In this document: piece after piece, positions 5,561 to 38,772 of the stretch
Layout: the number at the start of each line of letters is the position of its first letter
Position numbering within the stretch: position 1 is the stretch's first letter
DNA from: Flectonema sp. DT1601
Taxonomy: Eukaryota
Direction: 5' to 3'
DNA: 64,000 nt
Assembly: GCA_964019425.1 (NCBI GenBank)
Contig: OZ025790.1
Coordinates: 744,001 to 808,000, forward strand
Notes under the pieces: generated by a model
What the model was told of the DNA's origin: nothing
Database searches by the model: none
Seen by the model: only the letters and a program-made list of their open reading frames with translations
Made by a program: the position numbers and the translations under genes

Positions 5561-8500
5561 TTAATCTTTCTTCGTGAGACCGAAGACACCATCCCAGTAT
5601 TGGTTCTTAACTTCTGGAAGTGGTGATCTTGGGCGATCAAATCCTCCCTGAGTTAGGGTACCGTACGCTGTTGAAAACAAAACGCCGTGAGCTCTGTTCT
5701 CCAACTGTGTTCTTGAACTATCTTCGTTGTAGAAGTTTGTGTAGAATTCACTCTCAACAGTCGAAACGTTATCCTTGTGTGTGTCTACGAACCCAACATC
5801 ACTTCCTTCACCACCAATGATTTCATTCCTATCAGCTGTGTGGTCATCCCGACTGATATCAATCATTCGATCCCAACAATCGACATCAAATAATTTATAT
5901 GTCGAACTCTTTAAGTCAACGTAATTGTTATCAACTAGTTGTCCATCTCTTTGAAGAATTGATAAAACGATTCCTGTGAGTTGTTGAAATTATTAATTCC
6001 AATTAATGAAAAAAAGGGAATCTGAAAAAGGATCCTAACCTACCAAACAAAGACATACCTGCGTTATTGTTAACCAGAACATCAGCACCATTGCCTCCAT
6101 TGATAATGTCACAAAGAGGACCACTCTTTGGTTCATCGTGATTGAAGCTGTCGGAACTCTCGTGATCTTCATCATCGTGATGAGAGTAACGTTTTTTGCG
6201 TTCATTCCAATCGTGATCATCATCGTCATGATGGTGTTCGTCGTCATGGTGATGCCACCAGCTGGTGTACTCATGGTGGTGACCTGTTTTTAATTTATTT
6301 CAAAACTCAACACGGATACAAAACTATTTTTTTGTTGAAAAATATTATCTCCAATCAGTTCCTTTTCAATTCCTCCTCACCTTCTCCCTTTTTTCAACCT
6401 CTCCCCACCCTCCTACCCTCCCTCTTGTGATTGGATTACTTCACACAAAAAGTTAATAAAAACATACCCTTATCATTGTACAAAACAAGGTTGCTGTATG
6501 GGTGTAGACCCTCGTCTCTGCCCTTCAACAACCCAAGCTTCTTCGCCGGGTTGAGTGCACGTTCCTTGATAGTGTCTTGAATATTACTCATGTACATATC
6601 TTGGACTACATCAATGTGTTGGAAGTCGTGTTCTGTAGTTGGGTCAGCATGTGCTCCCGCAAAAGTATTGACGAACAAGATTCCGTAGTCTCCGATCACC
6701 ACGTCGTCTCCGGCGTTTCCATTAAGCTCGTCGGATCCCCACTTCGTAAGCGGAAGGGCGTTCCATCTCTCGTTCGAACGATGTCCAAGCTCGTGGATGG
6801 CAAGAGCGTGTGAAGGAGAAAACACGTCAACGTGGCGCCTGAACTTGTACTCCAAGTCGTTGAACAGCTGAGTGAAGGTGTGCTTGTCGTGGTTGTCACT
6901 CGGGTAGTAGTGGTCAAAGTGATCATTGTGGTCATCTTGGTTAGCGTCGTGGTGGTCGCCGTTATGATTGTAATCCCTGTACTCAACCCACTCCCAGTCC
7001 CAACCGTTCCAGCGGTAGTGTCCTGTGTGCTCGTGTTGCCACTCTCCATGGTGATCGTGTGCAGGAGGATTCTTTGTCAGGGTCTTCGAAACTAACACCA
7101 AACCATCACCAACCAGAACATCGTTTCCGTTGTTTCCGCGCATCACATCATTCGACACCGAGAGCTCCACCGCAGGTGCGGCAACCCCGACATCGCTGTT
7201 AGCAACCAACGCCTCAACAATCGCGTGGTGGGCTTCGAATACTGCGTGTGCAGCGTCCGCCGCCAACACCGAGTAGTCGTACAAGACGTGCATCATACCC
7301 TTCACAACGATTTCCAAGTCATCCTCAACAATTTCGTCGTGGAAGATTACGTCTACGAACGACTGCATGTTGTCTCCAACCAGCAAATCGTTTCCATTTC
7401 CTCCGTTTACCACATCGTTTCCGATCACTACCTCCGCTGGAAGCGCGTATGTTCCTTGGTCCGACTCGTAGGTACGCAAGTCAGTAGACGCTCGGAGGAG
7501 GCGTTTCTGCAACTCAATCCAGCGCGCACCAGCTGAGTCGTGAATGCAGTCCAAAGCACCGATTCTTAGGTTCATCATCGCGTGGTGTGTCGCACTGTCT
7601 CCAACCACGATGTCGTTTCCGTCACCCCCGTTCAACACGTCGTTTCCGTACAACGCCCTCTGGTTACGCACCGCGTCTGGGATCATCGACACGTATCCCC
7701 TCATCGTGTGTGACTGGTCGTCCGTGCGCCTCACATCTGCTACCCCGACTGCCTCGTGCAGTTTCTCCAACGCAGTCGGCAACACGGTAGCCATTGCCGC
7801 CCCCTCGATGATTTGCATAGCCGCCGCACGGTTCGAAGACTCCGGCTTCAACGCGATTCCAACGTGCATCACCGTTCCGAATTCATCGACTTCCAGAGGA
7901 GGCGAGTTCGCCGCACTGTCCTCCACCGACAGCACTCGAATCACGTTCGACACCAGAGGCATGTCGGAGTCGTAGTGGTACACCGAAGACACATCGTCTC
8001 CGTACAGCAAGTCGTTTCCTCCCTCTCCCGACAGCACGTCGTCTCCACGCTGTCCGAACAGATAGTCGTCGCCGTCTCCACCGTTCAGCGTGTCGTGGCC
8101 GGCAGGCTTCAACCTCATGCCCGCAATCGCCGTCTCCCACTCACCGCTTGGAGCCGTCGCCTTCACCTTCTGCGATTCGAATGCGCCCATCGACACCAGC
8201 AGCTCGTTCCTGAAGAAGGTTGCGGCTTCGTCAGCTGTGAACGTGCTACTCTCCCACGTTGGCAGCCATCCGGTCACCGTCACCGGCTCTTCGAGAACAA
8301 CGTCACGGTGCCAGGCACCTGTCCTTTCGTTCAAACGCGGGCTTCCGCCGCTCCTCAACGATCGCACCACGTGCCCGACATCTCCGATCAGCACGTCCCG
8401 TCCTTCCCCGCCGTGCAGAACGTCGTCCCCGAGTTCACCGAACAGCTCGTCGTCTCCCTCCTGTCCGTGCAACGTGTCGTCTCCACGCTGACCGTGCAAG

Positions 8501-11500
8501 ATGTCATTACCTGCTCCACCATCGATGCTGTCATTCCCAGACACCTCGTCGACGTCATCGAACCTCTGGATAGTCCGCACCACGTCTGCGAACATTGCCG
8601 ATCCAGGGAACCGCTCCCACACCTTCTCGTGGTCGAATGGAGCTCCGTTCTCCATCGTTAACACAGTCCTGCTGATTACACCGTTGTCACCCAGCACCAC
8701 GTCTGATCCCTCTTCTCCGAAGATCGTGTCGTCGCTGTCCACTCCTCCCAGCACGTTGTGCCCCCCAGTGATGTCATCGTCGCCGTCCCCACCGTTGATC
8801 GTGTCCTTTCCTTGCTGTCCCATCAGGAAGTCATCCCCCTCCCCTCCGTTAATCGTGTCGTCTCCGGCACCGACATCCGACGACGTGAACAACGACAAGT
8901 ACGTCGACCCACCACCCTCGAAGGCTGCGTGGTCACCCATCACCACATCCGAACCGGCGTTCCCGTTGAGCACGTCGTTTCCGGTTCCTCCGAATACGTA
9001 GTCGTCACCTGACCCTCCGTTGATCACATCCGACGCACCAGCCAGTGGATCGATCGTTTCCGCGGACACCACCTTCAGTGTCGCTGCATTCACCTTTGCG
9101 ACAACCTGATCTCCCCACAACATATCCTGGCCATCCTCTCCGTCCAACGTGTCAGATCCTTGTTGCCCCGCCAAAAGATCATTACCAGCGCCTCCCTTTA
9201 AGTGATCCGCTCCACCATTCACGTCGTCTCCTGTCGACACCGATGTAAAGGTGAGCAGCTCGGTGGACCTTTCGAAGACCGCGAAGTCACCGAACGCGAC
9301 GTCGTGACCTGCTTCTCCCTCCAACACGTCGTCACCTTTTCCTCCGAACATCACGTCGTTGTCATCGCCACCGAACATCGTGTCCGCACCACCGGTCCCC
9401 TGCGACATTGGTTCCGCATGCGATACCAGTCCGGTGTTTCCCTGCTGCGTCTCGATCGACATGTGGTCTCCGAACATCCAGTCGTCTCCGGGGTTCCCCT
9501 TCAAGTTGTCTCCCCCGTTCCCGCCGACGATCACATCGCTGCCGGCCCCACCGGAAACCTCGTCCGCGCCTCCTCCGTACTGGTCCTCTGTAAACACCGA
9601 TTCCAACGTCACGCTGCCATCCGCCACAGCGGTGCCCCACCTCAGCTCCAAGTAGTCACCGAACAACACGTCGTTACCGACACCGCCTGCCAACTCGTCG
9701 TCTCCAGCCCCTCCGACCAGCACGTCCGCGCCGTCGTCTCCGTGAAGCTCATCTCCGCCACCCATCCCTGGATCTGTGGACACCGCGTGCACGTTGTTTC
9801 CATCGTGTGGAATTGTTATCTCTGCGAAGTCACCAAAGATCCAATCATCTCCTGCGTTTCCGTGCATGACGTCCGCCGCTGCACCACCAAAGAGAACGTC
9901 GTCGCCTTCATCACCGTTCAGGGTGTCCGCTCCTCCGGCCTGGTCATCTCCCGGGAACGCTGTTTTCATAGTCACATCTCCCTCCTTCGACTTGGTGTAC
10001 TCTGCGTGGTCTCCGAACACGAAGTCCCTTCCGGAATTTCCGCTTACTTCATCCGCAGCCGCACCACCGATGACCACGTCGTCCCCCTCGTTTCCAGAAA
10101 TCGTATCCCCTCCCCCGAGGGTCGCCTCCGTCGATTTCATCGTCACTCCCCCATCGACGATGTCCACCGAACCATGGTCCCCGAGGATCTTGTCGTCACC
10201 CGCACCACCAACGATGTCGTCTCCGCCTGCCCCTCCGAAGATGATGTCATCTCCATCCGATCCGGCAACCGTGTCGGCATCTCCGTTGCTTCCAGGGGTC
10301 TTGAAGACCGTGCGCATGTGGCGGTCTTCCGGACTTGTGTACGACCGCTTGATCTCTCCGCAGTCTCCGAACACCACATCATTACCTTCCCCACCGTCGA
10401 TGACGTCCCTGTCCGCACCTCCGAACACGGAATCGTCACCGGCTCCAGCGACAATCGTGTCGTTTCCACCGCTCACCGCCTGCTCCAGACACTTCAGCGT
10501 GTGCTCGTCCTTCTTGATCGACAACAGCACGTCTCCGTGATCCCCGAACACCACGTCGTTTCCGCTCGACGCGTCGATGTGGTCAGCACCCTGTCCACCG
10601 ATGATGAAGTCATCGCCTTCGTCACCGTTCAGTTTGTCGTCTCCTCCACAACCAGACTCGGTGTGCGTCGAGTGCAACACACGCTCGTCTTTCTTTGACT
10701 CATACAGACCGTGGTCCCCGACAATCACATCTGCCCCACCGTTTCCATCGATCACATCTCCTCCAGCACCTCCGAACACGTAATCGTCTCCAGCTCCCGC
10801 CGTGATTGTATCGTCGCCACCACTACACGACCCGAGTGTGATGAGTTTCGTAAGCTCCGCGCTCGGCGTCCACGCAACCTCCCCGAGGTCTCCGAAGATG
10901 TAGTCGTTCCCGCCCTCGCCGTCGACTTCGTCGTCTCCCTCACCCGCAACTACCACGTCGTCCCCTTCGCCAGCGAAGATCTTGTCCGCCGCACCGGCAT
11001 CCGATGTCGCCGGACCTGCCGATCCCTTCACGGTGAAGTCACCTGGATTAGTCGTCTCGTATTTCCCGTAGTCTCCGATGATGACGTCCCCACCGGCCCC
11101 TCCGTGGACCACGTCACCGCCTGCCCCAGCGAGTATCTTGTCGTCGCCTAGTCCACCGTCGATGACGTCGCTTCCCCCGCCCACCTGGTTTGCGTTGCGC
11201 AACCTCACCCAGTGTGACGATGGGTTCAAATGCACCTCTCCAGCGTCTCCGAACACGAAGTCATCTCCGTCTCCTCCATTGATGGTGTCCTCACCACCAC
11301 CTCCCAACAAGATGTCGTTCTCTTCGTCTCCGTTCAAGTGATCATCCTCCCCATCCGCCGCGTCACCAGTCGTGACGAGGTGGGTCAGCCCAGTCAGAGG
11401 CGTGCGAGTCATGATCCCGATGTCACCGAATACCACGTCCAACCCAGCGTTTCCGCTGATCGAGTCCGCGCCCCGTCCTCCGAATAGGATGTCGTCCCCC

Positions 11501-14500
11501 GCGCTTCCGTGGATGGTGTCATCCCCGCTCCCGGCAGTGGCCTCGCCGTCGAAGACCGTTTGCAAAACCAAGTCACCCGGCTGTGTAAACATCTTCCTCA
11601 CGCGTCCAAAGTCACCGAAGATGAAGTCGACTCCATCCTCCCCATCGATTACATCGTTGGCCGATCCTCCGAACACGATGTCGTCTCCGCCACCAGTCAG
11701 AATCTCGTCATTCCCGCCATCCGCCAGCGCAGGCGCAGTCGACTCGTACACCAACGAATCGGCCTCCTTCGAGATTACCACCGATCCGTGGTCTCCAAAC
11801 ACCGAATCGTCTCCTCCGCGCGTGCGGATGACGTCGTTGCTCTGACCCCCGAACACGTAGTCCTTCCCGTCCTGCACGTCTATTGTGTCACTTCCACCCT
11901 CCCCGCCCTCCGTGAAGATCGAGGTCATGTTGAACTCATCGCTGGCATTGCGCTGCACGAATCCGTGGTCTCCGAACACCACGTTGTTCCCGTTGCTTCC
12001 ATCGATGGTGTCGTTCCCGTATCCTCCGAAGACGATGTCGTCCGCGTCTCCTGCCGAGATGGTGTCCGCTCCGCCAGACAACGGAGCCAAGGATTCCAAC
12101 GTGTAGGTCCCGTTCTCGTGGTCGCGTACGTGACCGTGGTCCCCAAAGATCCAGTCACTTCCCTCGGCAACCGTGATCACGTCGTCTCCCTGACCTCCCA
12201 TGATGATGTGCCGGCCGTACGAACCCGTGATCGTGTCAGCTCCTCCCTCGCCATCGGAATCGGTGAAAGTCGACTTCACGTAGAGTCCTCCCACGTCGGG
12301 GTTGCTGCTGTCGTGCGTCGTCCGGTACACCTCTCCATGGTCCCCAAGCAAGATGTCTTCGCCGCTGCTACCGACCACCTCGTCGTCACCGAACCCACCA
12401 ATGATCACGTCGGTCTCCGACTCTCCGTACAGGTGGTCATTTCCTCCCGACAAGCTCGCAGTCGAACGGAGCGACCACGTGTCCGAAGTTGCTGGGTCGT
12501 CGCTGATGTCAATCTCACCCTGGTCACCGATGATGAAGTCCTTTCCGTCCCCTCCGTGCACCGTGTCCCCTCCTTGACCACCGATTATGATGTCGTCTCC
12601 CACCGATCCGCTGAGGACGTCGTCGCCCCCCTCTCCCGCGTCCCCAGTGTGCAGCGACTCGAATTTTCTCCATCCCCCAACCGCCGACCATTTGATCTGG
12701 TACCGACCATGGTCACCGAAGATCACGTCGTTGTGTTTTTCTCCCTTGATCGAATCCTTCCCAGTCCCTCCGAAAACCACGTCGTCTTCGTCCCCCGCGC
12801 TGATCTCGTCATCTCCACCGGTCGTCGGCGACGTCGAAGTCATGATCGTCAGTTCCTCGCTTTCCCTCACTTCGATCTCACCAAAGTCCCCGAAGATCCA
12901 ATCCTTCCCGGTGTGTCCGGTGATCACGTCCAACACCCCACCTCCTCCGAAGATGATGTCGTCACCGATGTCCCCGACCAGCACATCAGAGTCGTCCGCC
13001 GACTGGTCCGCCAACTCAAAAAGCACCGACCGGTACACGATGTCTCCCGGCACCGCGCTCGTGATCGCACCGTGGTCACCGAACAGAACGTCGTTTTCAC
13101 GCTCACCGTACACCTTGTCCTGACCAAACCCTCCAAACAAGTAATCCATTCCGTCTCCTCCCCGCAGGTCATCTGCCCCTCCTCCCGACGTCGCGTGAGT
13201 TGATTCCAAGTGGAACGACGTCGGTCCCAAGTTCACCAAACCGTGGTCCCCGAACAGCCAATCACGCCCTGCTCCACCGACAATCTTGTCAATTCCTTGT
13301 CCTCCGAACACGATGTCGTCTCCGTCGTGGGTCGTGATCACATCGTCGTCCCCGTGCTCCGCCTCCGTCAGTATCGACTCCCAGTGACCCTCCCCATGGG
13401 CTGCGCTGCTGAACTTTCCGTGGTCACCGAACACCGCGTCGTTGTGCTCGTTTCCGTCGATCGTGTCCTTCCCTTCGCACCCGAAGATGTAGTCGTCCTC
13501 ATCTCCTCCAACGAGCGTGTCGTTTGCCCCGCATCCGAGAATCGACTCCACCGATCGGAAGTCCAAACTTGGGGCCAGGGTTCCCTTCCCGTGGTCTCCG
13601 ATGATCCAATCCTTTCCGGTGAACCCTTCGATCACATCAGATCCGAACCCTCCGATCAGGACATCGTTTCCGTGCTCACCGTAGATCAGGTCCGCCCCCC
13701 CGTCTTCGCACGTGAACAACGACTCCATCGCCATGTCTCCAGGCTTCGCGCTCTCCACCGACCCGAAGTCCCCGAACACCACGTCGTCGTGCTTTCCAGC
13801 GTGGATCGTGTCAGCTCCCCGTCCACCGAAGATCACGTCGTCCTCGTCTCCTCCAGACAGCTGATCCCCAGCCCCGTGTCCCGGACTCGTCGACTCCATC
13901 TTGAAGTACTCGAGTGAACCGTCCAAGAGGGCCTTCCCGTAGTCTCCGAACATCCAATCCCGCCCAGCCCCTCCTTCGACCACGTCCGCCCCAGCGCCAC
14001 CGAAGATGATGTCGTGGCTCTCCCCTCCGTAGATCGTGTCCTTCGCCCCCGTCGCAGGAGGAAGCGGCTGGTCGACCACTTCGAACGACGCATCGTACAG
14101 CCGGCTCCCAGCCGAAATGCTCTCGTACCGTCCGAAGTCTCCAAACAACACGTCCTTGTGATCGCCTCCGTGGATCTCGTCCGAACCCGGCCCTCCAAAC
14201 ACGAGGTCGTTCCCCTCCCCTCCACCGAGGGTGTCTTCTCCCCCGTACTCGAGAAAAGTCGTCTCCGCAGTCGCGTAAGTCTTGCTCGGCGAAACTTCCA
14301 CCGCCCCTGAATCTCCAAACATCCAATCGTCACCGGCACCGCCGACGACGTTGTCTCCTCCCTGACCACCCACGAGGATGTCGTCATCGTCTTCTCCGAA
14401 CAGCGCGTCAGAGTCACCGGCAGCAGCCGCTGCTCCACCGGACACCGACCAGTACTTCCGATCTTCCCCAACCACCTCGAACTCACCGCAGTCTCCGAAC

Positions 14501-17500
14501 AGCACGTCGTTGTTGTCCCCACCGTGAAGCTCGTCCGATCCAGCTCCACCGAACACCGTGTCCTCATCGTCTCCTCCGTACACCACGTCCCGGGCTCCGA
14601 GGGCCACCGCGTCGCCCACGGCGCAGCGTCCCTTCGCCGTCGCCACGTCCGCGATCACCCCCACCTCAACCGCTCCGTGGTCTCCAAAGATCGTGTCTCT
14701 CCCCTCCCCTCCGGATATCGCATCTTCGCCGGCCCCTCCGAACAAGAAGTCGTGTCCGCTCTGTCCGCTCAACGTGTCGTCGCCACCTTGCTCTGCGAAC
14801 AGCGACTCCAGCGTGAAGTCCGTCGGCTTCGAGAGAGCACTCGTGTACCGCCCGTGGTCTCCGAACAGGAAGTCCCGGTTCATCGATCCAAGCACCCGAT
14901 CCCCAGAAGCCCCTCCGAACGCCGTGTTGTTCCCGTACCCGACGTCGATCACATCGGCACCCCCGTCCGATGGGTGTCTTGACTCCGCAACGGTCACGTG
15001 ACGGTCTTCCTCAGCTCCCTTCTCCGAGAAGTATCCCAGTCCAAGCATTCCGTGGTCCCCGAAAACCACATCGTCCGAGCGCCCAGTGTCGATCACATCC
15101 GCTCCAGGTCCTCCGAACACTATGTCGGCCGAATCCCCGGTGTTGATCGTATCATCGCTTCCCTGCCCTGGGCATGTTGACTCCATTTTCACCACTCGAC
15201 CCTCGGCGTCGAACTCAATCGAACCCAAGTCACCGAATACGAAGTCCAACCCGCCCTCCGTTGTGATCTCGTCCCCTCCAGGTCCTCCAAATATGATGTA
15301 CCTCGAGCATCCTTTTGTTACGATTACATCCTTCGATCCCGCTGCCTCAGCGGCGCACGCCGACGAAGGCGACTCAGCGGTTTGCGCCGACGTCGGAGGC
15401 GCTGCCTTTCCGTCCAGCTGGCCCGTCGAACCGTGAGCTGAACCGATGCTCATCGTCCCCCCGTACGTCACCGTCCCCTCGTCTCCGAAGATGATGTCCG
15501 CCTTTTGACCTGGGTAGATCGTGTCACTCCCCAATCCTCCCACGATGACTAGCGGAATCACCGTCTCACGGGCATCAATTACGTCGTTGCCCCCCTCACC
15601 GTTCACCACGAAGAATCCGTCTGGGATCTCCCCTCCCAAGTAGATCTCCACTTCGTCGTCTCCGCCTCCCGTGTTCAACGTCGTCACCACCCGTTCTCCC
15701 TCAACCGCCGCCAGGATCGTGCTGCGCACGTACACCTTGTCCTTCTCTTGACCCGTCCACACCGTGATCCCTCCAGTGAACGTCCCCACGTACGGGATCG
15801 GCACAGGTGCCAAATTACGGATCAGGTTCTTCTCCAAGATCACCCGTTCACCATCCACTCCCTTCCCGGACCCAGTGCTGTCGCTCACCATCAACCGGTT
15901 GCATCCCGTCCCCGCATCCAGTGTGATCGTGTTCTGGATGTACTTCAGCCACCCCGGCAGCGTTGATCCCGACCCAGCTTCCGCAATCGTCACCAGGTTA
16001 GCATCTGACCCGAGGGCAATGACGTCGTCCCCTCCGTGGGTCCGGATCGCAGTCGGGATCGACACTCCACGCACGTTGATTGCATCCTTCGCCGTCGTTC
16101 CCATGTCGATCTCGAGCGTGCGCATGTCTCCGTAGTTGATCCCGGCCAACCGCACGCGGGAGTTGATGTCCGCACCCGCCAAGTATTCCACCTCCCCGTT
16201 CACCACCCCGGATACATCCACCGTTATCGCCCCACCAGCAGTCTCCGCTTCACCCTCGTACCTCACAATGTACGTCAGGGAATCCACCGAGTCCACCGCA
16301 AAGCTCCTCGTGCACTTGCTCTTCAACTCGTTCCCGCACCGGTTGGGGTCCGCCCCGAACACCGCATGTTGCATCGCATCCTCAATGGTCTTCGCAGCTG
16401 TCCCCAATGAGAACGCGTCAAGGTGGTACACCATCCCGTCGAACTCGAACGACAGCGCGAACGCACCCGACGTCCCGCGCACCGTCACCGCGTGCACCTT
16501 CTTCGAATCTTCTCCGCGCTTTGCAACCATTCCGAAACCGGACAGGTCCGTTCTCGACAAGAACCCGGCGAATCCGAGATCCGGGTTCCCTCCCCAGTTG
16601 TTAATGTGCAGCGTGTTGTGCTCTCCGCTCCCTCCGCTCAGCGACACCAGGTCTTTGATCTGCACAAGCTTCCCCGCATCGTCTCCGACCACAAAAGTGT
16701 CGTCTCCCTCCTGTCCGTTCACGTACGTCGGCCCAACAGCCCCGTACACCTGAAACGTGTCGTCCCCCTTTCCAGCGTTGATGTAAGTCGCCCCCGTGTG
16801 CGTACCTCCCACCACCACCGTGTCCACAGCAGCTCCGAGGTTCAACACCACCACCTCCAAGTCCGAGTACTGGATTCCACCCAGAAGCGCCTTCCCTTCA
16901 CGCACTCGGTCGGTTCCCATTCCCATTCCGGTGACGCGTCCTGGCAACAACGTCACCGTCGTTGGAAGGAATCCCCCCGTGTTCTCCACCGTCAGCGTGT
17001 CGATCTGCATTGACTCGATCACATCCAGGTTGGGGTTGTCCAGGCGATCCGCGAATACCCCGGAGTCCGTCTCCCCCGGCAACATCACCGGTGGCAGGAA
17101 GTCGATCGCAGTGGGGTTGTTGTCTCCGCTGACCGTCAGAGATCCCTGGATTTGGTACGCCAGAGACGGTTGCGCCCCGAACTCCTTCACCGTGTGGTCA
17201 TCCACCGCGTTGTCCACCACCGCCGTCACCGTCACCGTTTGCGCAATGTAGTAATTCGAACTGTCGAACGTCAGCGTCGCCGGACTCACGCTCACCTGCT
17301 CACGCTCCGGCAGGAACTTCGCCTCGATCGCCTTCGTCTTCTTCACAGTCGGCGACACCGTCACCGATCCCTGGGGTTCCTTGGTCAGGTACACTTCGTA
17401 CGTGTCAGTCAGGCCACCCTCGATGACGTCCGTGCTCCCATGCGACTCCAGCAGCACCATCCCCGGCGCCTCGTTGTCCAGGATCTGGATTCCGACATAA

Positions 17501-20500: not shown

Positions 20501-23500
20501 ATGTCGATCAGGCACGCCGAAATCGATAGCTCCGGGTTCGTCTTCTCCCACCTTCCCCGAGGGTAGCAGTACACCCATCCACACTTCCAGTTCACGAACG
20601 GATTGAAGATCTCCGCGTAGATGCTCGCCCCGGCGCAGAACTTTGCCTTGAGATTGAACAGCTTGAAGAAGTTTTCCTTGATGATCGCCCAAATCTCCCC
20701 CAAACGAATCTTTCCGTCACCGTTCGGGTCGTACAAGTCGATCGAAGCTTCGAAGCTCACGAAACCCGACGCACGCACGCGCACCAGACCCAGGTTGATA
20801 CTCGCACTCACCCGGATCCCTCCCGATGCCGCCAGCTCCAACGTGTCTTCTCCCGGCGTCTCCGTGTCCGAGATGAAGAATCCGTTCAGCGCCAGCAGCG
20901 GCTTCTTCCGCTCGATAGCCTCCCGGATCCCGGACGTGTCGTACCCGGCCTGCAGCCTTGCGCTCACCTTGAATTCTCCGTAGAAGTTGATCGCCAGCAC
21001 GAAGAAGTCGATCCCGAAGTCCACGATCACTTCGATCTCCATCTTCGGCGAGTTCAACGTAATGAGATCCACGTCCTCTCCCGTGATCAGCCCCAACGCC
21101 CCGCTCGGTGACAAGAACGGGTACTGCCACATCGCCTCCGAGTCCGTCAGCCTCTTCAGCAGCTTCTGCATTCCACCCCCGCCCGTGTCCTTTCCGATGT
21201 CCCCGGTGCTCTTGGTCTGCGTCGACGGCTTGGTCTTCGAGCTCGGCGATGTCGCCAACACGTCCCATTCGCGTCCCGTTCCCTCGAATGTTCCCGGGTT
21301 CGGTCCGGTGAACACGAACGGCACAATGTACGGTCCGATCTTTTCCAACTCGAAGTCTCCGAAGTTCAACTTGAACGAATCGATTGGAGGGTTTCGGTTC
21401 AGCTGCTCCTCCACCTGTTTCACGAGGTCCACGATTAACTGAATCAGTTCAACAATCTCCGTGATCACTCCGAGGTAAGCTGCAATGTTCTTAACTGATC
21501 CACGAACCGGACCACCAGACCCAAGCAGTCCGTTGATCAGCAGTTCCGGCAATTCCAAGATGGTGACCGACCGTCCCGCGATGTCCGAGATCACCGGCAG
21601 CCTCACCTGCAGGGCGTCCAACACCGGCTGGATTGGCTCCACCAGTTCTGCCAACTTTCCGAAGATTGGCTGCAGCAGCGTCGTGATGATCTTTCCCATG
21701 TCCAGCGACACGTCGAACAGAAGCACCCGGGGCAGCGGAATTGCGCGGGGCTTCTTCAGCGACTTCGACTGGTACTTCTTCGGCAAGTCCTTCTTCCCCG
21801 ATTGAGCTGGAAGGGCTGCCGATGACTTCTTCCCCTTCGTGAAAGCTCCAGAGATCGTCCATTCGATGTACGCCCCGCAAGACAAACTCGGCAATCCGGG
21901 GATCACGGATTCCAGGATTCCGAACCGGAGGTCCATTTCCGCCAACGCCGTGAATTCGTACTCCAAACTCAAAAGCGACAGTCCACCCTTTTTCAGCTCC
22001 TTCAGCGTTAGGTAATTGTCCGTGTTCACGTCCAACACGTCCAAGTAGATTGCTCCAATCAATCCCGTCGCACCCTCGCCATCCGGGTAGTCTCTTCCGT
22101 TCATCTCGATGTTCATGATGAACAAGTCTCCCGCTGCTCTCAGGTTCGGGAACGTCAGCGCAGCGAACACCGTCAGCTCTTTTCCGTCTACGTTCAGGTA
22201 GAATCCCTTCTTCACACTCATACCGAACTTCAAGTTGAACCTCCACCCGATTACGAATTTCAGGTCCGACGACAGTTCGAACCCGAGCGGGAACTCGTCC
22301 AATCCGAACCCGATGTCGAACCCAGCTCCCACTTCCCAACTCATACCGATGTTCAAGTTCCACTCGATCGCGTCTGCTTCCGACAGGTCTGCTCCGTCAA
22401 CCAACGCGTAGTTCTCGTCCAGCACCTCGGGCATCACGTTCCCGTCCTTGTGACGCACAGTCACCTCGATCGCTTTCCAATCCGACGCTGGGTCGTAAGG
22501 GTCTGCCGCTTCCAGCAGGATCCCCAGCTCATCGTGGAACAGCAGTCCCATCAACTTCGCAAGCACCTGAGCCACGTTCAGTTTCTGCCCCGGTTCGTCC
22601 TTCGCCAATGCGTCCAGCCCGTTCGTCATCGTGTTCACCAGCCCCGTTCGGAAAGACGAGATGAAGCTCGTGTCCAGCGCGTCCCGAACTTTCTCCCCGA
22701 GCATCGGAAGCAGCAGCTTCTTCAGGATACCCGCCCCACCGGTGATGATCTTGTCCAGCAGGGCCAACACCGAATCGATTCCATTGATGATCGTCTGGCT
22801 GTCGGTCAGCATTACCTCAACCGGGCTGATGCTGAACTTACCCGACAGCAGCTTCAGCACGTCCAGTCCCGTCACCGTCACCGAACCTGGAGTGCGGCTC
22901 AAGAACGCATCCAGCGACTCAATCTTGAACCCGATCTCCCCGAAACCGTCGATTGGCAGCGAAGCTTGCACCCCTCCCGTCAATCCCTGCGTCGCTTTGA
23001 AGTCCGCCAAGATTGCCGAGAACGCTCCGCTCTCCAGTGCGTGATTCTGGCTCAAACCGAACCGGTACTGCACCGGCACGTCCGCGATTCCAACCTCCGC
23101 CTTCGCACCTGAGATCGAGATGTCGAACGGACCGAGAGACGCCGCGAAGCTGAATTCTCCCTTCGCCAACAGCTGCAACGTCAACCCCGTCTCCTTGTTG
23201 AGCGACAGCTTCGGCGTCTTTTCCAGCGTCACCTCCAGAGCCAGCACCAGCTCCGCCGAGGCCGAGAACGAGAACACCGACTCCAAACTAGCCGATGCGT
23301 CCACAAGCGACGTCAACGAATCCAAACCCACCTCGTCCAGGGCGTCGCTGTTCTGGATCAGCTCCGCCAGCGACACGTCGAACCTCAGCTCCTTCGAATA
23401 CCCAAGCGCCTTCGTCAGGGATACCTGGATCGAGCTCGGTGCCCCTCCCATCCCCTCCACGTATGTGAAAGTCAGCAGCGACGGGTCCAGTCCCAGCTTG

Positions 23501-26500
23501 TCTTCGATCAGCTCTTCCAACCGCTTGATGCTCCCTCCGAGGTCGCTTGCGATCGACTCGATCTCCCGCAGCACGACCTGCACCGGGTCCAAGATCTCGT
23601 TCGGTGTGAACGACAAGAACGGAATCTCCATGTCCAAAATCGCCAAGTCTCCAATCAGACCCGAATCCCCGAACTTTCCCGCAACAATCGTCGGCACCCC
23701 GTCCACCAGGGTTTCCGGAGGCCCGAACACCAGCTCCACCGCGTCCGCAATCAACCCGATGATCTGTCCCAAGTCCATGTTCTTGATGTCCGACAGGTTC
23801 GGGAACGACGGCACGTCCACGGTCACCAAGAAGTCCGAACCTGTTGGCAGAGACGACGTGAAGCCTTTCTGCAGCGGCAGCACGAACTCAGGGAGCTCCA
23901 CCTTGATCCCACCCGCCGTCAGGCTCAGTACCCCCGGAACTTCGATCGACACCGTTCCCTCGGGAAGCGTGAAAGCTCCCGAGAGCTTCGCCGTCGCCGT
24001 CACCAGAGAGAACCGCGTGTCCGCGTCACCGAGCGCCTCACGAAGCGCAGCCAACGTCGTCTTCTCCGTCAGGCTCCCCAGCACCACGTCCAACTCGGCC
24101 CGCACGAACCCGCTCCCGCCGTCCGCCACCGCCGCCAACACCGCAACGTTTGCCAGGAATCCGAAGTCGGTCGCGTCCAGCTGCAAAGCCCCCACGAAAT
24201 GCAACCCCCTCACCAGCGGCGCAAACGTCTTGGCCCGCGAGCTCTCGCTCTTCATTCCTCCCACGTTCTTGAACTCCTCCGTCACCTCAGTCTCAAACTT
24301 CCTCACTCCCGTCGTCGTCACCGTGTACGACTTCTGTTCCGTGTACTGGATCACCGTAATCTTCTTTCCTCCACTCAGTTGCGCGTCCACCGTCGCCACC
24401 TGCTTCGTCAGCTCCTCCACGAGCTTCTTCCCCGAATCCAGAGTCACCGAGTACCGCACCTTGTCCAACACGAAAACGCAACCCATCCCGCTCGTCGTCG
24501 TTGCCTCCAGCCCCCCCGCAGGCGCCCCGATGATCGACAGGTCACCCGCCGACATCCCGAGACGCGCCCCGAAGTCGAACGACAAGTCGAAAGTCGTGCT
24601 CAGAGCCAGGTTCGCCGACGCCTCCACGTCCAACAACGGATCCACTTCCGCCCCAAACCGCAGGTTCACCGTCGGGGTCGGCAGCGACAGTTGCGGAAGT
24701 GCCACGTTGAACATGACATCCCACTGCTGCGTCACCGCATCCTGCTCCAGGGTTACCTTCACCACCGTAGGTGCAAGCGCTTCCGACAAGATCGCGCTCA
24801 GAGCGTCAGCCGTGCTGAACGACGGTTCGCGTGCCACGTTCACGACCGTCCCGTCCTCAATCCCGAGCACCTTCACAGGCTTTCCGAGCATCTCCTCGTA
24901 CTTCGTGTTCCCCGTCTTCAGAAGGGTCACTCGGAACCCGAGAACCGAAGCCTCAATCTCCTCGGTCGTGCACACCCGAATCCCCTCCGTCCCGTCATCC
25001 CTTGCCGCCACGGTGATCGATGATCCCAATCCAGCAGCGTTTACCGCCTCCGCCACCCTCGCTGCCACTCCAGCGGTCGTCGTCTCCGCCTGGATCGCCG
25101 CGTAGTCCAGCTCAATCAGCGTCACGTACTGCTGGTTGATTTCGATCTCGAACGTCCGGAACGTAAGCGCCTCTTGGAACGCTGCGTTGTCCGCTCCCGC
25201 CCAGCCTGGCAGCATCTCACTCTCGTAGCACAGCGACAGCGTCTGGCGATCCTTCGGTGCCTGCGCCGCCGTCATAACCGAAACCAGCTTCTCCGTGATC
25301 GAATCTGCGAAGTCGATCGCATTTCCGAGCGACAAGTCTATCAGAGGCAGCGTCACGTTGAAAACTGGCGAACTCGCGTATTCTTGCAATCCATTGATCA
25401 CCGTGTTCACGATCTGCACCACGTCAAGCGGCGACAAACCCCGAAAGTTCAGCAGCTGGTCCATGTTGTGGTGCGCAATCGTCAGTCCCCCCGGGGTGAA
25501 GATGTCCGGCAAATCCACCGTTACCCGCGGTCTTAGGTCCTCTCCCCCCATTCCCACATTGTTGCTCCCGCTCAGATCCGTCTCCCCGATCGTCGCCTTG
25601 AACGGAATCTCAGCCTTCACGTGACCACTCTTCGTGATTACCATCGCATCTCCGCTGATCTGCGTGATGGCAACGTGGTTTCCCCCGGAAAGCGCTCCCT
25701 CGAACCGCATCGCGATGCTACCCGACCCCCCGTCAATCGCAGCGCCGAGCACCCCCACCGTCACAGTCGCCTCCAGCCCACTGTTCAACGACAGGTCCAG
25801 CACAAAGTCATCGAACGCGATCGACACGTCGTTTGCCGACACCGACGACAGCCCACCCGACAGGTCGATGCGCAGCTCGAATCGGAACCCAAGCGTCGCC
25901 TTCGCCGCAAACGTGTTCACCCCGCTGAACTCGAAAAGCTCTTCGTCGATCAGGTCCTGCAGCTTCGGCGTGATCTCCATGTCAAGCAGCCCGTTTACGA
26001 GAAACGAAAGCTCGAACACGTCCCCGTTCCGCCCTCCCGAAACCAATGCGAACGGCACGTTGTTCTGCGGTTTGAAGATCAGCTCGACCATCGCCAAAAG
26101 CTTCTCCTGGTACATCGTGATCACCTCACGCGCCCCGGGGCACACCGGTGACCCCTCGCTCGCCTTGCACGTTGCCGAGTATTTCTCGTCCACCAACTTC
26201 GTCAGCTCCGCATCCCAGATCAAGAAATCTCCGAACGTCGTCGAGTTCTCCCCCGTCGCCAACATCCCGTTCAGCGAACGGTCCAGCAACGGAATGTTCG
26301 TGTTCAACGCTTCCAACGAGTTCAGTTTCTCCCCGACACTTGCCACCGCCCCGAGACCCGATTTCAGCGCGTCCACGATCTGCGGAGTCAGGGCCACGTC
26401 TACCTGGAATTTAGGTCCCGTTGCATCGAACAAGTTGCGATCCACAATGTCCAGCGTCACCAGAACAGATTCCACTCGGATCGGCAACGATGCCTCCAAA

Positions 26501-29500
26501 CTTCCCTGCAGGACTAGCGAATCTTTCAGAGGCTGCACGTCGAACGACACCGCTGGCGACGCCGTCTGATCGAACAAAGTTACAGGTCCCGCCGCCGTGG
26601 CCGTCGAGTTTACTCCGAACCCGAGAAGCAGGTTTCCGCTTTCCAACGTAAGGTCGATCGCCCCGAACGAAAGAGTCTCCACGTAGTCCGTCAGGTTCGC
26701 CCTCACCGCGAAGAAGAAATCCGTCACACGTGTGTAAGCCAGGGGCGCTGACTTTGTTTCGATCAGCGGCTTCAGGTTCAGCCCCGCCGTCACCCCGACC
26801 CGAAACTCCGCTCCGAACGAGAGAGCCGTCGATAGGTCTCCAAGCGCTCCCAACGTCTCCATCGCCACGCTGTCGAACGCTGGATTATCCGCAACTCCGT
26901 CCAGCAGCTTAGTCAGTGCATCCGCAAGCGCCGTCACCAGCTCCGCAGTGGTCGCTTCCGCCCCGAAATCCAGCAGCAGGTCTACCACCACACACATGTC
27001 CCCCTCGGTGTTCGTCTCGAGACCTCCGTTCACCGACAGCGGCCCAACCGACACCCCGACAGTCAGTCCGCTCCCGAACACGCGCTTCTTCAGATAGTTC
27101 ACGAACCCACCGATGCTCGGGTTACGTCCAAACAGGTTCGCCAAGTCATCAACGGTGATCGAAACTGCCGAAGATCCGAACAGTGCGCTTCCCACCTGCG
27201 GAAGGTAGTTTTTCCAGTCGAAGATTTCCCCGGTGCTCGGGTCAAGGTGAAACCCCTCCACCGTCAACACGCTGAACTTGCTCTCACCGATCAGCACCAA
27301 CATCGCACTCTGGAAGTCGGTACTCGTCCCAAGGGCCTCCCCGACGCTCAGCAGATCCCCGAGGCTTCCCAGAGTGAACGACCCCGCGCTCACAGAAGGT
27401 GCCAACGCAACACGAAGCTCCGTCAGGTAATCCACTGGGTTGAATCTCACACTTCCCACCGTCACCGGGAACCCTGAAGCGTCCACCGATCCAAACAGAT
27501 TCCTCACCGCGTCCGGAAGTTCCCTCAGCAGCGCCTGCGCCATGCGCTTCGTCATACCGAAGTCCGGGTGCAGCGACAACAGCTGTCCAACCTCTCCGAC
27601 GCTCAGCGCACCCGTCGAAACAGATCCCGTCGACAACCCAGTGAAGTACGCTCTGAAATACGTTGGGAAGCTGAACAGACTAAAATACTCGTCCGCAGAG
27701 GGGTCATGGAGCCCCGAGTTGAATCGTCCGAACACCGCTCCCCACTTCCCCTGAAACACCACCAGAATCTTCGCGTTCGTCGCGTCCAATTTCGCCCCCA
27801 CGTCCAGAGACGACAGCGCCCCGGCAACCTCCAGAGACAGACCTCCAGCCAACCCATTCGCCAGCTGACGGAACTTGATTAGCAATTCCAGGTAGTCCCC
27901 CAAGTTCTTCGCGATGTCGAATTTCCCCTTGAAAGACGACAGAAGCCCCTCGATCTGTGACAACCCCGGGATCGATGACAACCCCGACACGTCGAGACCC
28001 CCAATCCCCTCAATCAGGCTCGTCAGCTTCTCCGGCAGCTCCGAGAACGTGTTCGTCGACAATCCCGTGTGTCCGACCCCTTCCCCGACACCGTTCGGAA
28101 GGCTCGGAATGAAAGCCGACAAGTCCATATCCAGAGAGAATTTCGGAAATCCCCCCGCGAACAGATTCTCGTTGTGGTACTCGATGATGGGGATCAGGTT
28201 CGCGTCCCCGCTGAACAGTCCCACGTCCAGCTCGATTGGCAGGATCACATCCACCGATGCGTAAGGAGTAATCGACAGTTGCGACAGAAACTCTTTCATC
28301 CCATTAACACCTCCGGACCGCAGCTTGAACAGCGAAGCCTCCAAGTACGGAGTCAGCTCACCTTCCGCTACCGCAGCTCCAAAGTTCGACTTGAACCCAG
28401 CACCCAGAGCGAAAGACCTCGCTGATCGCAACCGTGAACACGTCTCCCCCGAAAGACAAGCTGAAGTCCACCGGGTCCACCACGATCGCTGCCCCTGCGG
28501 ACAAATCGTTCACCCGAATCACGGAATTCACCGCGATCTTCTCTCCCGACAGCGCCCCGTCGTTCACGAACTTCGTGTTCACCGCGAGCGTCACGTCAAC
28601 GACCACCTGCGCTTCGAACTTCACCTCTGCCGACAGGCTCGGTGCCGCTACATCCCCCTGCGACTGTCCCAGCAGGTCGAACAGCGGACCCAGGTCCTTG
28701 ATGTGCGAAAGCATCCCGTCGATGGTCGCCCCAAAAGATCCCACAGACTCACTAGCTGAAGCCTCCAACCGCATGTTCAGCCGCACCTCGTTCGACTCCG
28801 GGAACCAACCCCCGCTCAGCGTCAACCCGCCCCCTGCGGCATAGTCCAGCGACGCCCCGTTTGTCGGCGTCATCAACCGATCCTTGATGTGGGCCATCAG
28901 CCCGCGGAACGTGTGCGACCCCGACAGCCCGAAGTACGCCTCCGCCACGGTCTCCAACTTCAGCAGCTCTCCCACTCCGTTGAACAGCGTAGACGAGTCC
29001 AATCCCTCGATGTTCAGCCCGCCGTCCCACCCGAATTTACCAAAATCAATGTTTGCAAGCTGCCCCAGCTGTCCCAAGATCGTCTCTTTCAGTGGATCGA
29101 TGTCCGCATCTACCGAGAAAACCAGCGCCACTCCATCGAAGATGTTCTCATCCGACAAACTCAGAACAGGCGACGGCAGCTGCCCGACGATCGGCGTCGT
29201 TACCCCAACCGTGAACACTCCCTCGAAACCTCCGCTCGGACTTCCCACAGAAATCTCCTGCACCCGCGTCAAGAAGTTTGTCACGTCGTCCGACGGAAAG
29301 TAAATCGGAACTTCCGCATTCGAGATCGTCGCCGTCCCAGCAAGGCTCACCATCCCACTCACTCCGGTCCAAGCCACCTCCTCTCCAGCATCTACCGACC
29401 CACTCAGAGAGATCGTTACCTTCGAAGCACCAATCGAGATCGTCGCCTTCTCCGACGGAGACGTCACCGAGTTCGGAATCTTCAGCGTCACCGTCGACGA

Positions 29501-29998
29501 GAAACCACCGGTTCCGGTCAAACTCAGCCCCCCACCCACCTTGAACGCAATCCCCAGCTTCTGCAGGTCAGCTGCCGGAAGTGATCCAAGACTACCGGAA
29601 AGGGTGACCGCTTCTTCCAGAGCCACCGTCATCGAGATCGTCAGCTCATCTGTCACCGTGTCGTGCGTGCACGCCGCTGCGATCTGGCTTCCAAGGGCCG
29701 TATTCACCACGTCGAATGCCGTCTCGTTCACCGTGTTCAGCGTGGTAGTCAGATCCGCTGCGAACTTTGGCAGACCCATCGAACCTAAATCCTTGTTTGC
29801 TCCCGGAATTAAGTTTGAGAATTGGGTCAGTTTGCCTTCGATCGAAGCAGATGCGACCTTCACTGCGTCCAGTGCGTCTAAGATATGCTGCTGATACGCA
29901 GCTGCCACGTCTACACATGGTTCCATTAAACCGTTTGTAGGTGTTGCTGACAACATCGCACTTATCGCCATCATCATTATCGACGATCGCGTACTCAT
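5561..29998 (-). CDS. Giant secreted RTX-like Ca-binding repeat protein, copy A (~8,050 aa): exons 29998-6468 (frameshift ~28417), 6283-6059, 5973-5561
   Basis: Joins ORFs 28358..29998, 6436..28431 and 5561..5866. N-terminal hydrophobic signal; dozens of GGxGxD and FGDxG repeats; Calx-beta/Ig-like VTAVDD modules; spliced exons stay in frame (…YNDK-G-HHHEY…VNNNA-G-IVLSIL…MIDISRDD…LTKKD*). Confidence 0.85.
5974..6058 (-). other. Spliceosomal intron 2 (85 bp) of the RTX gene; copy at 43292-43376
   Basis: GTATGT…CTCACAG, phase 1, AT-rich; removal restores the frame. Confidence 0.85.
6284..6467 (-). other. Spliceosomal intron 1 (184 bp) of the RTX gene; copy at 43602-43785
   Basis: GTATGT…AAAACAG, phase 1; the following exon encodes a further IINGGNGADVL repeat. 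Confidence 0.85.
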
Positions 29999-30755: not shown

Positions 30756-31598
<843 letters not shown>

Positions 31599-31655
31599 TC
31601 ACCCAGTCTGTACAAAGACAGCTCTGTCGGATGATGCGACACTTTTCCGACCTAT

Positions 31656-32963
31656 CTAGGTCAGGCCCTTACCCTCCCGTCTCCCCTCGACGTCTCCCGT
31701 CTTTTCCTTGGTGAAACCAAGGCCCAGCAGGGTTCCCTGTCCCTTCACTTCCTTCTTCGTCTTCCGTTTAGGGGCAGGTTTCGGTGGCAGTTGTCCGTGG
31801 TGTTTGTGTGAGCAGCACCAGGATGCCAGTCGGTGCGACCGGTTCGCGTTGCGACCGCAGCTTTGACAGATCGGTCTGTCGTGTTGTTTGCACCTGTGAT
31901 GGTACTTCCCGCAGCAGGTGTCGGCTGTCTTCCTCTGCGAGTAGCAACTCCCGCATGCCGTCATTCTGTGCTTCGTACAGAAGTCCCAGACGGGGGTCAG
32001 TCCGTCTGATTCGTCATTTCGGTGGTGGTTGTAGCAGCATTCGTAGATTGCCACTTCCACCGCGTTGTCGCATGTCGCGCACTTCCCCTTGCGGTGAAGT
32101 TTGCATACCGGTGGTGGCTTTTTTCCTAGTGGCGGTGGTCTCTTCGTTGCTTCCTCCGGGGCCACAACTGAGTCCTCTTGTTCACGCATCACCGTCCATC
32201 TCGCATCCCATTCAGGTGAGGGTTCCTCGGAAGCAGTCTTCCTCCAAATGTCAGCTTTCTTTTCCCATCCCGGCGGGTGTTCGATGAACGTGTTGCTGCC
32301 GAAAGGTTGTTCGGGGTACAGGTCTTTCTTCTCGTGTGCGTCCGAGATCAGGTCTTCCACCTTCCGGGCAGATTCTTCACCTCCGAGGAACGTCGATCTC
32401 CTGTCGATTCCCGCAATTCTCGGTCCGTCCAGCGGTCGTAGAGATTTGATCACTTCCTTGATGTTGCCATCGGGGTAGATTCTCTTGTCCGGTCCGTCCA
32501 TTTTCTTCGCGATCCTGTCTATCTTCACCAGTAGGTTGGCGAAGGTTCTCGATTTCTTGTCCATTGAAATCGGGTGGGTGCTTTCGGTGTGGCTGGTGGT
32601 GGCTTCTTTCAATCTGATTCCCGTGCAGATCTCGAAGTCCACCGCCATTTCCAGGAAGGTTATCCCGTTTCCGTCCTTCCTTGCCGCCCACTTGATCCTG
32701 TTCAAGTAGCTTGCAATCGCGAGGTATGTTTCTCTCGTATTGCATCCCGGCCAGGCTCGGTAGTTAGGCATGTATCGGGCCAGGTTGTTGGGGTACGAGA
32801 TCATCTCTTCGGAGCTCCAGTCGCCGGCGTATTTCAGTGTGGTGGTCGGTCGTGCCGTCCGATCGCAACGTCTTCTGTCTCTCTCGAGTCTGATTCGCGC
32901 CAACATCAGTTGCATCCTCCCAGTGATTCCGTTCGGAAGTTCCATTTCCAGAGGTTTTATCCC
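31656..32963 (-). CDS. C-terminal part of LINE ORF2 after a frameshift (~32964), with three tandem Cys/His modules
   Basis: Frame is open upstream of the annotated Met (GIKPLEMELP…), continuing PPCLRL; contains FLEMAVDFE and three CxxHxxxxCxxC…CCxx(x)HH repeats. Confidence 0.75.
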   Translation of the reverse strand, partial: GIKPLEMELPNGITGRMQLMLARIRLERDRRRCDRTARPTTTLKYAGDWSSEEMISYPNNLARYMPNYRAWPGCNTRETYLAIASYLNRIKWAARKDGNGITFLEMAVDFEICTGIRLKEATTSHTESTHPISMDKKSRTFANLLVKIDRIAKKMDGPDKRIYPDGNIKEVIKSLRPLDGPRIAGIDRRSTFLGGEESARKVEDLISDAHEKKDLYPEQPFGSNTFIEHPPGWEKKADIWRKTASEEPSPEWDARWTVMREQEDSVVAPEEATKRPPPLGKKPPPVCKLHRKGKCATCDNAVEVAIYECCYNHHRNDESDGLTPVWDFCTKHRMTACGSCYSQRKTADTCCGKYHHRCKQHDRPICQSCGRNANRSHRLASWCCSHKHHGQLPPKPAPKRKTKKEVKGQGTLLGLGFTKEKTGDVEGRREGKGLT

Positions 32964-35900: not shown

Positions 35901-36383
35901 GTTCTTCCGTGTTCGCTTCTGATCGTACATCTCCGTAGAACGAAATGGCATGCAGAACCTTGCCTTTTCCGTATGCTACGCCAGCGTGTACGTATCTTCC
36001 GGATTCTTCGAGTACCTTCGGTCCTCTGATCCTTCTAATCGGAGCGTTGTGTTTCGCGAGGACCGCTACTCCACCCGTGGTCTTGTAAGACCGTTCGTCG
36101 ATTCTTCTCCTTTCGGAGGGTTTGCTGAAGACCGCCGACCAGCCCTCTCGTTCGAGTTGTTTGAGCATCTTCTTCTGTTCTGTTTCAGAAAGAAGTGTCT
36201 CTTGCACTAGGATGATGTCGGCGTCCAGCGCTATCACCGCTGCGACGTTTTTCATCATCGTCGTGGTATTCACCGTTGCCACCGAGAATTCCGAAGGGAG
36301 TCTCATTGTTGCGTTGTCGTCCCCAATCCGTCCTGTGTCGGTCCAGCCGCTTCCTCTCCTTTCTGTGTTGTGGAGGTTCCGAG

Positions 36384-36387
<4 letters not shown>
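32964..36387 (-). CDS. LINE ORF2: apurinic-like endonuclease, reverse transcriptase, CCHC zinc finger
   Basis: APE: VATVN, DIILVQET, GGVAVL, IGGDFN, RIDAVL, PTHKPV. RT: AAGTDG, RPITV, QTGFRKG, DFKKCFDLVPH, GILQGCPLS, YADD. Zn finger: CKNC…ESLDHNFWIC. Confidence 0.95.

Positions 36388-38772
<2,385 letters not shown>

Follow-up and report, generated by a model that had tools for sequence, protein, structure and literature searches.

The 64,000-nucleotide stretch analyzed here (contig OZ025790.1 of the Flectonema sp. DT1601 assembly GCA_964019425.1; hereafter the window) contains, on its minus strand between an ATG at 29,998 and a TAA at 5,561, a gene whose predicted intact product is a giant RTX repeat protein of 8,056 aa and 844 kDa, with an isoelectric point (pI) of 4.3. 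We found that this is most likely a diplonemid nuclear gene and that it very probably originated from a bacterial giant-RTX gene. Judging from its sequence, we have good confidence that the product would be secreted through the endoplasmic reticulum (ER) with disulfides, and on balance we favor a role as a secreted structural adhesin or calcium-rigidified coat fiber.

A preliminary description of this DNA, made from the letters alone, had proposed an ~8,050-aa protein encoded by a 23.5-kb GC-rich first exon and followed by two GT-AG introns near the 3' end. The spliced model indeed gives 8,056 aa, and the size and composition of exon 1 were correct (23,531 nt, 59% GC; the introns have 31-34% GC), but this exon is not a single open frame here, as the frame shifts at ~28,420. 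The gene is organized as follows.

28421..29998, minus strand: exon 1, first frame; 526 codons ahead of the break, with 32-34% identity to the N termini of P0002-P0006 and 520/520 residues identical to P0323
28417..28420, minus strand: frameshift; homologs are colinear across the site and P0323 is unbroken
6468..28419, minus strand: exon 1, second frame; 7,357-aa open frame that aligns with six diplonemid-clade proteins over 5,000-6,200 columns at 36-41% identity
6284..6467, minus strand: intron 1; GT-AG, 184 nt, 34% GC
6059..6283, minus strand: exon 2; His/Asp-rich, with the final RTX-like unit
5974..6058, minus strand: intron 2; GT-AG, 85 nt, 31% GC
5561..5973, minus strand: exon 3; ends at the stop, C terminus without a hydrophobic anchor

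The spliced tail of the gene is open through to the stop. When its last 420 residues were aligned with transcriptome proteins, one alignment block crossed both introns, with P0001 of Diplonema japonicum (E 1.5e-52) as well as with P0003 of Rhynchopus euleeides (E 1.6e-36). Because of these intron-spanning alignments, both introns are well supported. The ENA gene calls of the window gene extend into intron 1 and then stop, and P0002 reads through both intron positions, from which the introns may have been gained recently. The third-position GC content falls from ~0.7-0.8 along exon 1 to 0.43 in exon 2 and 0.36 in exon 3 (window 5,561-7,500).

In the window, exon 1 is made of two overlapping frames of 546 aa (29,998-28,358) and 7,357 aa (28,509-6,436). 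All five homologs that reach ~28,420 are colinear across the break, and an intron at this site was ruled out since they leave no space for one. In addition, the ENA record P0323 (7,847 aa) is uninterrupted at this point and, apart from two residues in the second frame, is identical to the window protein, indicating that an intact form of the gene is already on record. No shorter homologs of the stretch right after the break were found among 7,991 candidates scored. We consider the frameshift to be probably an assembly error rather than the mark of a dead copy, because the adjoining long interspersed nuclear element (LINE) has a similar single break and because another assembly splits a homolog (P0065/P0066) on one contig. 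The LINE switches frame at ~32,970, where its reverse transcriptase (RT) frame gives way to a Cys/His-rich one of 437 aa without a Pfam match. That the window copy is instead a dead tandem duplicate with a real frameshift, its sister copies being functional, is a possibility we hold only tentatively, and it would concern this copy and not the role of the family. The break itself, the splitting of the upstream cathepsin gene by the LINE within the same tandem unit and the residue-changing nature of 3/4 differences between copies speak for it, whereas the near-identity to P0323 does not, and the lone break of the LINE and the split P0065/P0066 fit residual assembly indels.

The gene lies within a 37,318-bp tandem duplication, in which 907-26,682 and 38,225-64,000 are equal over 25,776 bp apart from 4 substitutions.

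42879..64000, minus strand: second tandem gene copy, incomplete because the window ends within it; 3 of its 4 substitutions change a residue

P0204 and P0323 differ from each other at one of the same positions as the two window copies, and P0322 represents a third copy, which departs from the nearer window copy at 16 positions that all lie in its last 360 residues. The tandem array thus looks real. The differences of P0322 (against window 7,500-6,440) fall mostly in a His/Asp/Trp-rich stretch, and either a diversifying tip or gene conversion elsewhere may be behind them.

Of 3,743 candidates searched with the core of the protein, 61 matched, the best six at 38-43% identity and the others at 22-29%. 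These six include P0001 of D. japonicum and P0003 of R. euleeides (both from EukProt) plus four ENA proteins. Overall, diplonemid proteins were closest (31-44% identity, Diplonema and Rhynchopus transcriptome products included), followed by testate-amoeba and eukaryote-like proteins. A broader search, of which the best 150 of 1,054 matches were considered, added P0063 of Flectonema neradi, DIPPA_05841 of Diplonema papillatum (a distant paralog), P0068 of the testate amoeba Pyxidicula operculata and proteins that begin or end in intron-like text. Transcriptome-derived homologs are present in three diplonemid genera. Together with the introns and with the neighboring cruzipain-type cathepsin gene, which is a eukaryotic host marker, they are the basis for assigning the gene to a diplonemid nucleus. 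As the closest homologs are eukaryotic, the transfer would be old, or the gene would have been passed between eukaryotes.

Beyond eukaryotes, identity to bacterial relatives is 42-50% along the middle stretch of the protein. Among GTDB genomes, 437 stretches matched the pattern and 353 were confirmed as relatives; the best 80 of those confirmed belong to Planctomycetota, Pseudomonadota, Acidobacteriota, Verrucomicrobiota, Chloroflexota and others, with 25 from Actinomycetota. Open frames of 8,568-14,491 aa were present in each of the five GTDB genomes opened. In viral contigs, none of the pattern matches was confirmed with either of two pattern sets (0/28 and 0/54). A quick LG+C20 tree of 50 of the 208 core segments, the segments left aside including identical or short eukaryote-like rows, placed the 14 eukaryote and eukaryote-like rows in one clade (SH-aLRT 99). 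Similarly, a FastTree of all 208 segments recovered the eukaryote and eukaryote-like rows as one clade (support 96). Nearest to it in both trees were three prokaryote-type rows: P0067 (LEPR-XLL, DUF4347), P0020 and a Planctomycetales protein. A Cys pair outside the tree columns (residues 4097/4128, see below) agrees with a single eukaryotic clade, and the first ~1,200 aa match eukaryotic members almost exclusively.

The horizontal acquisition proposed in the preliminary description is in good agreement with these relatives across many phyla and with a eukaryotic clade lying beside bacterial giants. A bacterial origin is the simplest reading because the family is wide in bacteria and patchy in eukaryotes. 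Bacterial contamination or a chimeric assembly, suggested by the bacterial-type GC-rich 23.5-kb exon and by the endosymbionts that diplonemids carry, is extremely improbable: the gene has two spliceosomal-type introns backed by transcript homologs, it is linked to a euglenozoan cathepsin and a LINE, its nearest relatives are eukaryotic, it lacks LEPR-XLL, and no relative was confirmed in viral contigs.

The regions of the protein, from the N terminus on, are as follows.

29930..29998, minus strand: predicted signal peptide of ~23 aa, assigned by eye, hydropathy and homologs; polypyrimidine tract and AG upstream
20482..29929, minus strand: N-terminal ~3,150 aa; helices alternate with long antiparallel strands, internal repeats of ~300 aa are faint, and neither a family nor a fold was matched
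22003..22032, minus strand: EF-hand-like loop 1 (DVNTDNYLTL); strand-loop-helix in the model, kept in 6/6 diplonemid homologs, no Pfam EF-hand match
20701..20730, minus strand: EF-hand-like loop 2 (DPNGDGKIRL); kept in 6/6, PF00036 E 0.016, 15.2 bits against a cut-off of 25.4
19660..20481, minus strand: predicted parallel beta-helix/beta-roll lacking the canonical motif; pLDDT mostly 85-94 over residues 637-910 of the model
18220..19140, minus strand: most conserved stretch, common to bacterial giants; 42-50% identity to 10 homologs, 353 GTDB stretches
17140..18210, minus strand: three Ig-like repeats of ~115-130 aa; mutual repeats, module 2 with the Cys pair common to the eukaryotic clade
8100..15500, minus strand: RTX block; ~60-aa units with GGxGxD nonapeptides and FGDxG, scattered units continuing to ~6,100

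The signal peptide noticed earlier stands as a prediction from inspection, hydropathy and homolog pattern. Its best 11-residue hydropathy is 2.0, compared to 2.45-2.9 in 4 of the 5 homologs that have this end, and the N termini of the homologs align on a Cys a few residues past the predicted cut. The polypyrimidine tract and AG upstream of the ATG are a possible trans-splice acceptor. Sixteen of the 36 Cys residues are kept in every diplonemid homolog that covers them, and these fall in pairs; Cys content is 0.42-0.53%, against a median of 0.16% in 55 other homologs. In particular, Cys 4097 and 4128 of Ig-like module 2 are present in 15/15 eukaryote-like rows (some of them near-copies, Pyxidicula included) and in 3/153 and 1/148 of the others, many of which share only the Ig-like module. 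A hydropathy scan detected no transmembrane span or GPI-like tail (maximum of 1.96 for a 19-residue window), and the best 15-residue hydropathy within the last 60 aa is 0.69.

The ~9 kb of GGxGxD-FGDxG repeats seen in the preliminary description were confirmed. The protein contains 55 GGxGxD motifs, whereas 300 shuffled versions averaged 2.0 and never exceeded 6, and PF00353 matched over 34 stretches (E 1.3e-212). Each repeat unit of ~59-60 aa comprises three nonapeptide-like turns and a closing FGDxG, as seen over 32 units in succession. By analogy with known RTX repeats, these would fold as beta-rolls in a calcium-dependent manner. The roll contains ~20% Asp+Glu, and there are 20-23 His per 250 aa toward the end of the protein. 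Pfam and NCBIfam profile scans of the protein found no enzyme, pore or effector domain. The NCBIfam RTX_toxin model (NF033943) reached 478 of the 1000 bits required and matched best within the repeats, and the serralysin model was likewise far under its cut-off; no N-terminal RTX domain was found in Pfam.

Neither Pfam nor NCBIfam gave a match to the N-terminal ~3,150 aa, a region that is 38-48% hydrophobic per 250 aa and that contains internal repeats by self-profile (E 9e-7 and 1e-4). An AlphaFold2 model of 22,389-19,660 (910 aa; pLDDT 72, pTM 0.42) shows long sheets with helices followed by a confident beta-helix, its strands being 15-28 residues long and arranged in repeated modules; a second, N-terminal model was poor (pLDDT 47). 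The fold matches of the 910-aa model were generic (Z ≤8.6, root-mean-square deviation [rmsd] up to 35), and Foldseek, run on both models whole and not split into single domains, found nothing above TM 0.12. A PDB sequence search with the middle 1,800 aa found nothing under E 0.14, and the ESM Atlas returned matches only to clusters without names (0.83-0.91). By VIA, the beta-helix segment resembled the RTX blocks of CyaA (6sus; Z 7.5, rmsd 4.7, 182 aligned), the fungal wall adhesin Awp1 (Z 6.7) and the HxuA TPS domain (Z 6.3), all below Z 8 and hence within the tool's stated background.

The two EF-hand-like loops named in the preliminary description are present and conserved in all six homologs, but the EF-hand profile is weak and below cut-off for DPNGDG and absent for the other loop; in the model, a strand and not a helix precedes each of them. 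Similarly, the three modules then called Calx-beta/Ig-like are repeats of each other (E ~1e-6), but the Calx-beta part of the label does not hold: PF03160 did not match in them even at E 10, while the bacterial control P0017 gave 5 stretches. They are likely Ig-like in fold, with a sub-threshold fn3_6 match (E 0.005).

We then considered how the bacterial relatives leave the cell, as the preliminary description had assumed that the protein was rerouted from a C-terminal type I signal. The relatives do not bear this out. Oryzobacter and Microbacterium are bacteria without an outer membrane, and their proteins start, by eye, like Sec-type signal peptides: basic residues come first, then a hydrophobic run and an AxA site. 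Gram-negative relatives carry an N-terminal LEPR-XLL, often beside SecA_DEAD/HlyD/M50/SapC genes, and may have a C-terminal signal. The bacterial family thus likely already had N-terminal export signals, in which case capture by the ER would need a leader swap and not a reversal of secretion polarity. A loose LEPR motif was found in the first 150 residues of 41/55 non-diplonemid matches and of 0/5 diplonemid homologs, and is absent from the window protein. The LEPR-XLL model NF012209 scored above cut-off in P0067, P0045 and Jannaschia and Mesorhizobium proteins, below it in P0020 and a Stieleria protein, and did not match the first frame of the window protein.

The Jannaschia giant gene is followed by genes for GAF-HlyD, M50-HlyD, a SecA_DEAD protein, HlyD and SapC. 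At least one of these cassette genes lies beside 15/80 GTDB loci, none of them actinobacterial, a count that is a lower bound since the giant gene occupies most of each locus; in Stieleria none is adjacent. The five Jannaschia genes scanned included no ABC (ATP-binding cassette) transporter, whole genomes not having been searched for ABC exporters. Kamneva et al. (2015) described a secondary SecA_DEAD/HlyD/M50/GAF cassette, in which they found no ABC transporter and for which the section on it names no substrate (PMC4452313). Giant LEPR-XLL RTX proteins may be candidate substrates of this cassette. Such genes adjoin the cassette and SapC at L162:2326-9820 (Jannaschia), L167:1-10518 (Mesorhizobium), L034, L035, L043 and L061. 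The scanned long frames of the window included no transporter gene, and no SecA_DEAD/HlyD/M50/SapC cassette lies beside the gene, whose neighbors are the cathepsin and the LINE. We also noted that the actinobacterial RTX giants of 9,000-14,500 aa (Oryzobacter L165:1-7767 and L166; Microbacterium L163:9101- and L164) combine signal-peptide-like starts with Pro-rich or hydrophobic-plus-basic tails, one Microbacterium genome having at least three such frames.

The ER lumen is rich in calcium. We propose that the giant protein would enter the ER by its N-terminal signal peptide, that disulfides would form there and that the calcium-rich lumen would fold the RTX repeats during import. The resulting acidic rod of ~840 kDa would then be released and help to build an adhesive surface coat. 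RTX repeats fold on calcium binding and serve in S-layers, surface fibrils and motility as well as in toxins (PMC3034196). According to another report, D. japonicum, which transcribes the homolog P0001, attaches via an amorphous mucilaginous coat (PMC5845003).

Three other functions were weighed against a structural adhesin or coat fiber. It is unlikely that the protein is a secreted weapon or extrusome cargo, with the RTX rod bringing the hydrophobic N-terminal region to prey membranes or walls. Its 38-48% hydrophobic N-terminal 3,150 aa and model sheets loosely like half beta-barrels would suit this role, diplonemids have been suggested to be predators and have extrusomes (PMC10161547 and PMC5845003, both in part), and a secreted-type cathepsin is duplicated along with the gene. 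However, Pfam shows no hemolysin pore, enzyme or effector domain, RTX_toxin stays at 478 of the 1000 bits needed, the maximum 19-residue hydropathy is 1.96, and the barrel matches are generic (rmsd 5-35). A lipid carrier, in which the repeated long sheets would make up a hydrophobic groove like that of TamB/AsmA or lipovitellin, seems quite improbable to us. The 15-28-residue strands in repeated modules and weak matches to the TamB beta-taco (Z 5.8), LptG (Z 6.8) and MTP and vitellogenin (E about 0.01-0.02) point in this direction, but all these matches lie in the tool background (Z under 8, TM ≤0.12) and come from one 910-aa model, in which interleaved helices may cover the sheets. Very doubtful, finally, is a role in the secretory pathway as a metal sink or a template for minerals, with the Asp-rich roll and the His/Asp-rich tail binding Ca, Sr or Ba. 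This would account for the pI of 4.3, the ~20% Asp+Glu in the roll and the abundance of His toward the end (20-23 per 250 aa), and diplonemids accumulate barite and celestite (PMC9972996); yet it leaves the conserved 4,800 aa ahead of the roll unexplained, and some relatives have few or no repeats.

Several observations weigh against a secreted coat fiber of bacterial descent. The tie to the mucilage coat would be a match of biology only. The N-terminal 3,150 aa lack a recognised fold and may harbor an unseen activity. P0001 is labeled complete but begins only ~1,500 aa into the alignment and has no signal peptide, and P0005 also lacks one. The Cys pair 4555/4563 is present too in 18 of 47-48 non-eukaryote rows. 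The trees were quick and unrooted, with long branches, no bootstrap and no AU (approximately unbiased) test, and the groups were picked after the first tree. Lastly, P0063 of F. neradi retains the core alone, without an RTX match, and then continues into a Cys-rich region that includes a CAP domain, and Pyxidicula P0068 has 5 GGxGxD and no PF00353 match, so that the RTX repeats are not common to all members. In P0063, the sheet-and-helix core appears reused with eukaryotic domains.

Compared with known systems, the window protein has the same order of parts as the bacterial LEPR-XLL giants of Planctomycetota, Verrucomicrobiota, Alphaproteobacteria, Acidobacteriota and Actinomycetota, which are of similar or greater size: a sheet-and-helix core with EF-like loops, a beta-helix, the middle stretch, Ig-like modules and an FGDxG-type RTX block. 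However, it has no LEPR-XLL, export cassette, Calx-beta or SdrD-B match, and it has a predicted eukaryote-type signal peptide, introns and paired Cys. The SecA_DEAD/HlyD/M50/GAF cassette (PMC4452313) stands directly after the Jannaschia relative and is absent from the eukaryotic locus. With classical RTX proteins (HlyA, CyaA, RsaA, SwmA and RTX adhesins) the window protein shares GGxGxD nonapeptides near the C terminus and a predicted beta-roll like the CyaA blocks (Z 7.5). Unlike them, it is found in a eukaryote without an outer membrane, has a predicted N-terminal signal and ~60-aa units with an FGDxG insert, and lacks a pore, enzyme or acylation partner. RTX proteins count by definition as type I exports of Gram-negative bacteria, and their export is described as a type I system of ABC transporter, membrane fusion protein and outer membrane protein acting on an uncleaved C-terminal signal (PMC3034196); here, the locus is eukaryotic and intron-bearing and the predicted signal is N-terminal.

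Literature searches, most subscription papers being outside their coverage, found no description of this diplonemid family; bacterial members are annotated, and the searches found no study of them. The main text of the D. papillatum genome paper, as far as available, contains no RTX or hemolysin, and its 7 supplementary files hold a single row, OG0026306. This "putative Ca2+-binding hemolysin" is listed as a diplonemid-gain orthogroup of Sulcionema specki and Rhynchopus humris (Valach et al. 2023, table S1B, one row), and it is likened to the window family by its matching label and diplonemid gain only. The main text of a 2026 preprint on diplonemid transfers (10.64898/2026.01.29.702485) likewise mentions neither, and its supplements may list the family; the giant-gene preprint 10.1101/2023.11.21.568195, in the part available, concerns other proteins.

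We tentatively hypothesize that one ancient capture of an export substrate of the bacterial giant-RTX kind founded a eukaryotic family found in diplonemids (Discoba), in a testate amoeba (Amoebozoa) and among further protists. This family would have gained ER disulfides, lost the dedicated SecA_DEAD/HlyD/M50 exporter and supplied a calcium-set fiber for coats, glues or shells, and its 3,000-residue N-terminal repeat fold, without a solved relative, would have been reused by diplonemids with other cargo domains. The reported bacterial gains of diplonemids are mostly metabolic; here, a full 8,000-residue RTX giant has been kept in this abundant marine protist lineage, transcribed in relatives, intron-bearing and tandemly amplified. 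The adhesive coat of diplonemids thereby gains a named candidate component, and D. papillatum, which has a distant paralog, is tractable. The family also points to likely substrates of the orphan SecA_DEAD/HlyD/M50 cassette and to a large repeat region without a known fold.

Each tandem unit also includes a cathepsin gene, upstream of the RTX gene.

30756..38754, minus strand: cathepsin-L gene of the tandem unit (PF00112 and PF12131/DUF3586, cruzipain-type); split by a 6.65-kb LINE

In both units this gene is interrupted at identical GCNGGL codons, by two different inserts (38,244-31,555 and 926-1, minus strand): the 6.65-kb LINE, which encodes an APE endonuclease and RT, and an ~0.89-kb element without a long frame. 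Exact GT-AG splicing-out of these inserts was rejected, since by eye the junctions do not fit. Both are flanked by the same duplicated target of about 19 bp, the last copy of which is cut by the window edge, and their 3' ends show 79% similarity across 39 nt. We take this as a sign of a site-specific retroelement that, like its partner, targets a gene coding for a protein. Within the duplicated target lies GGGTTA, the telomere hexamer.

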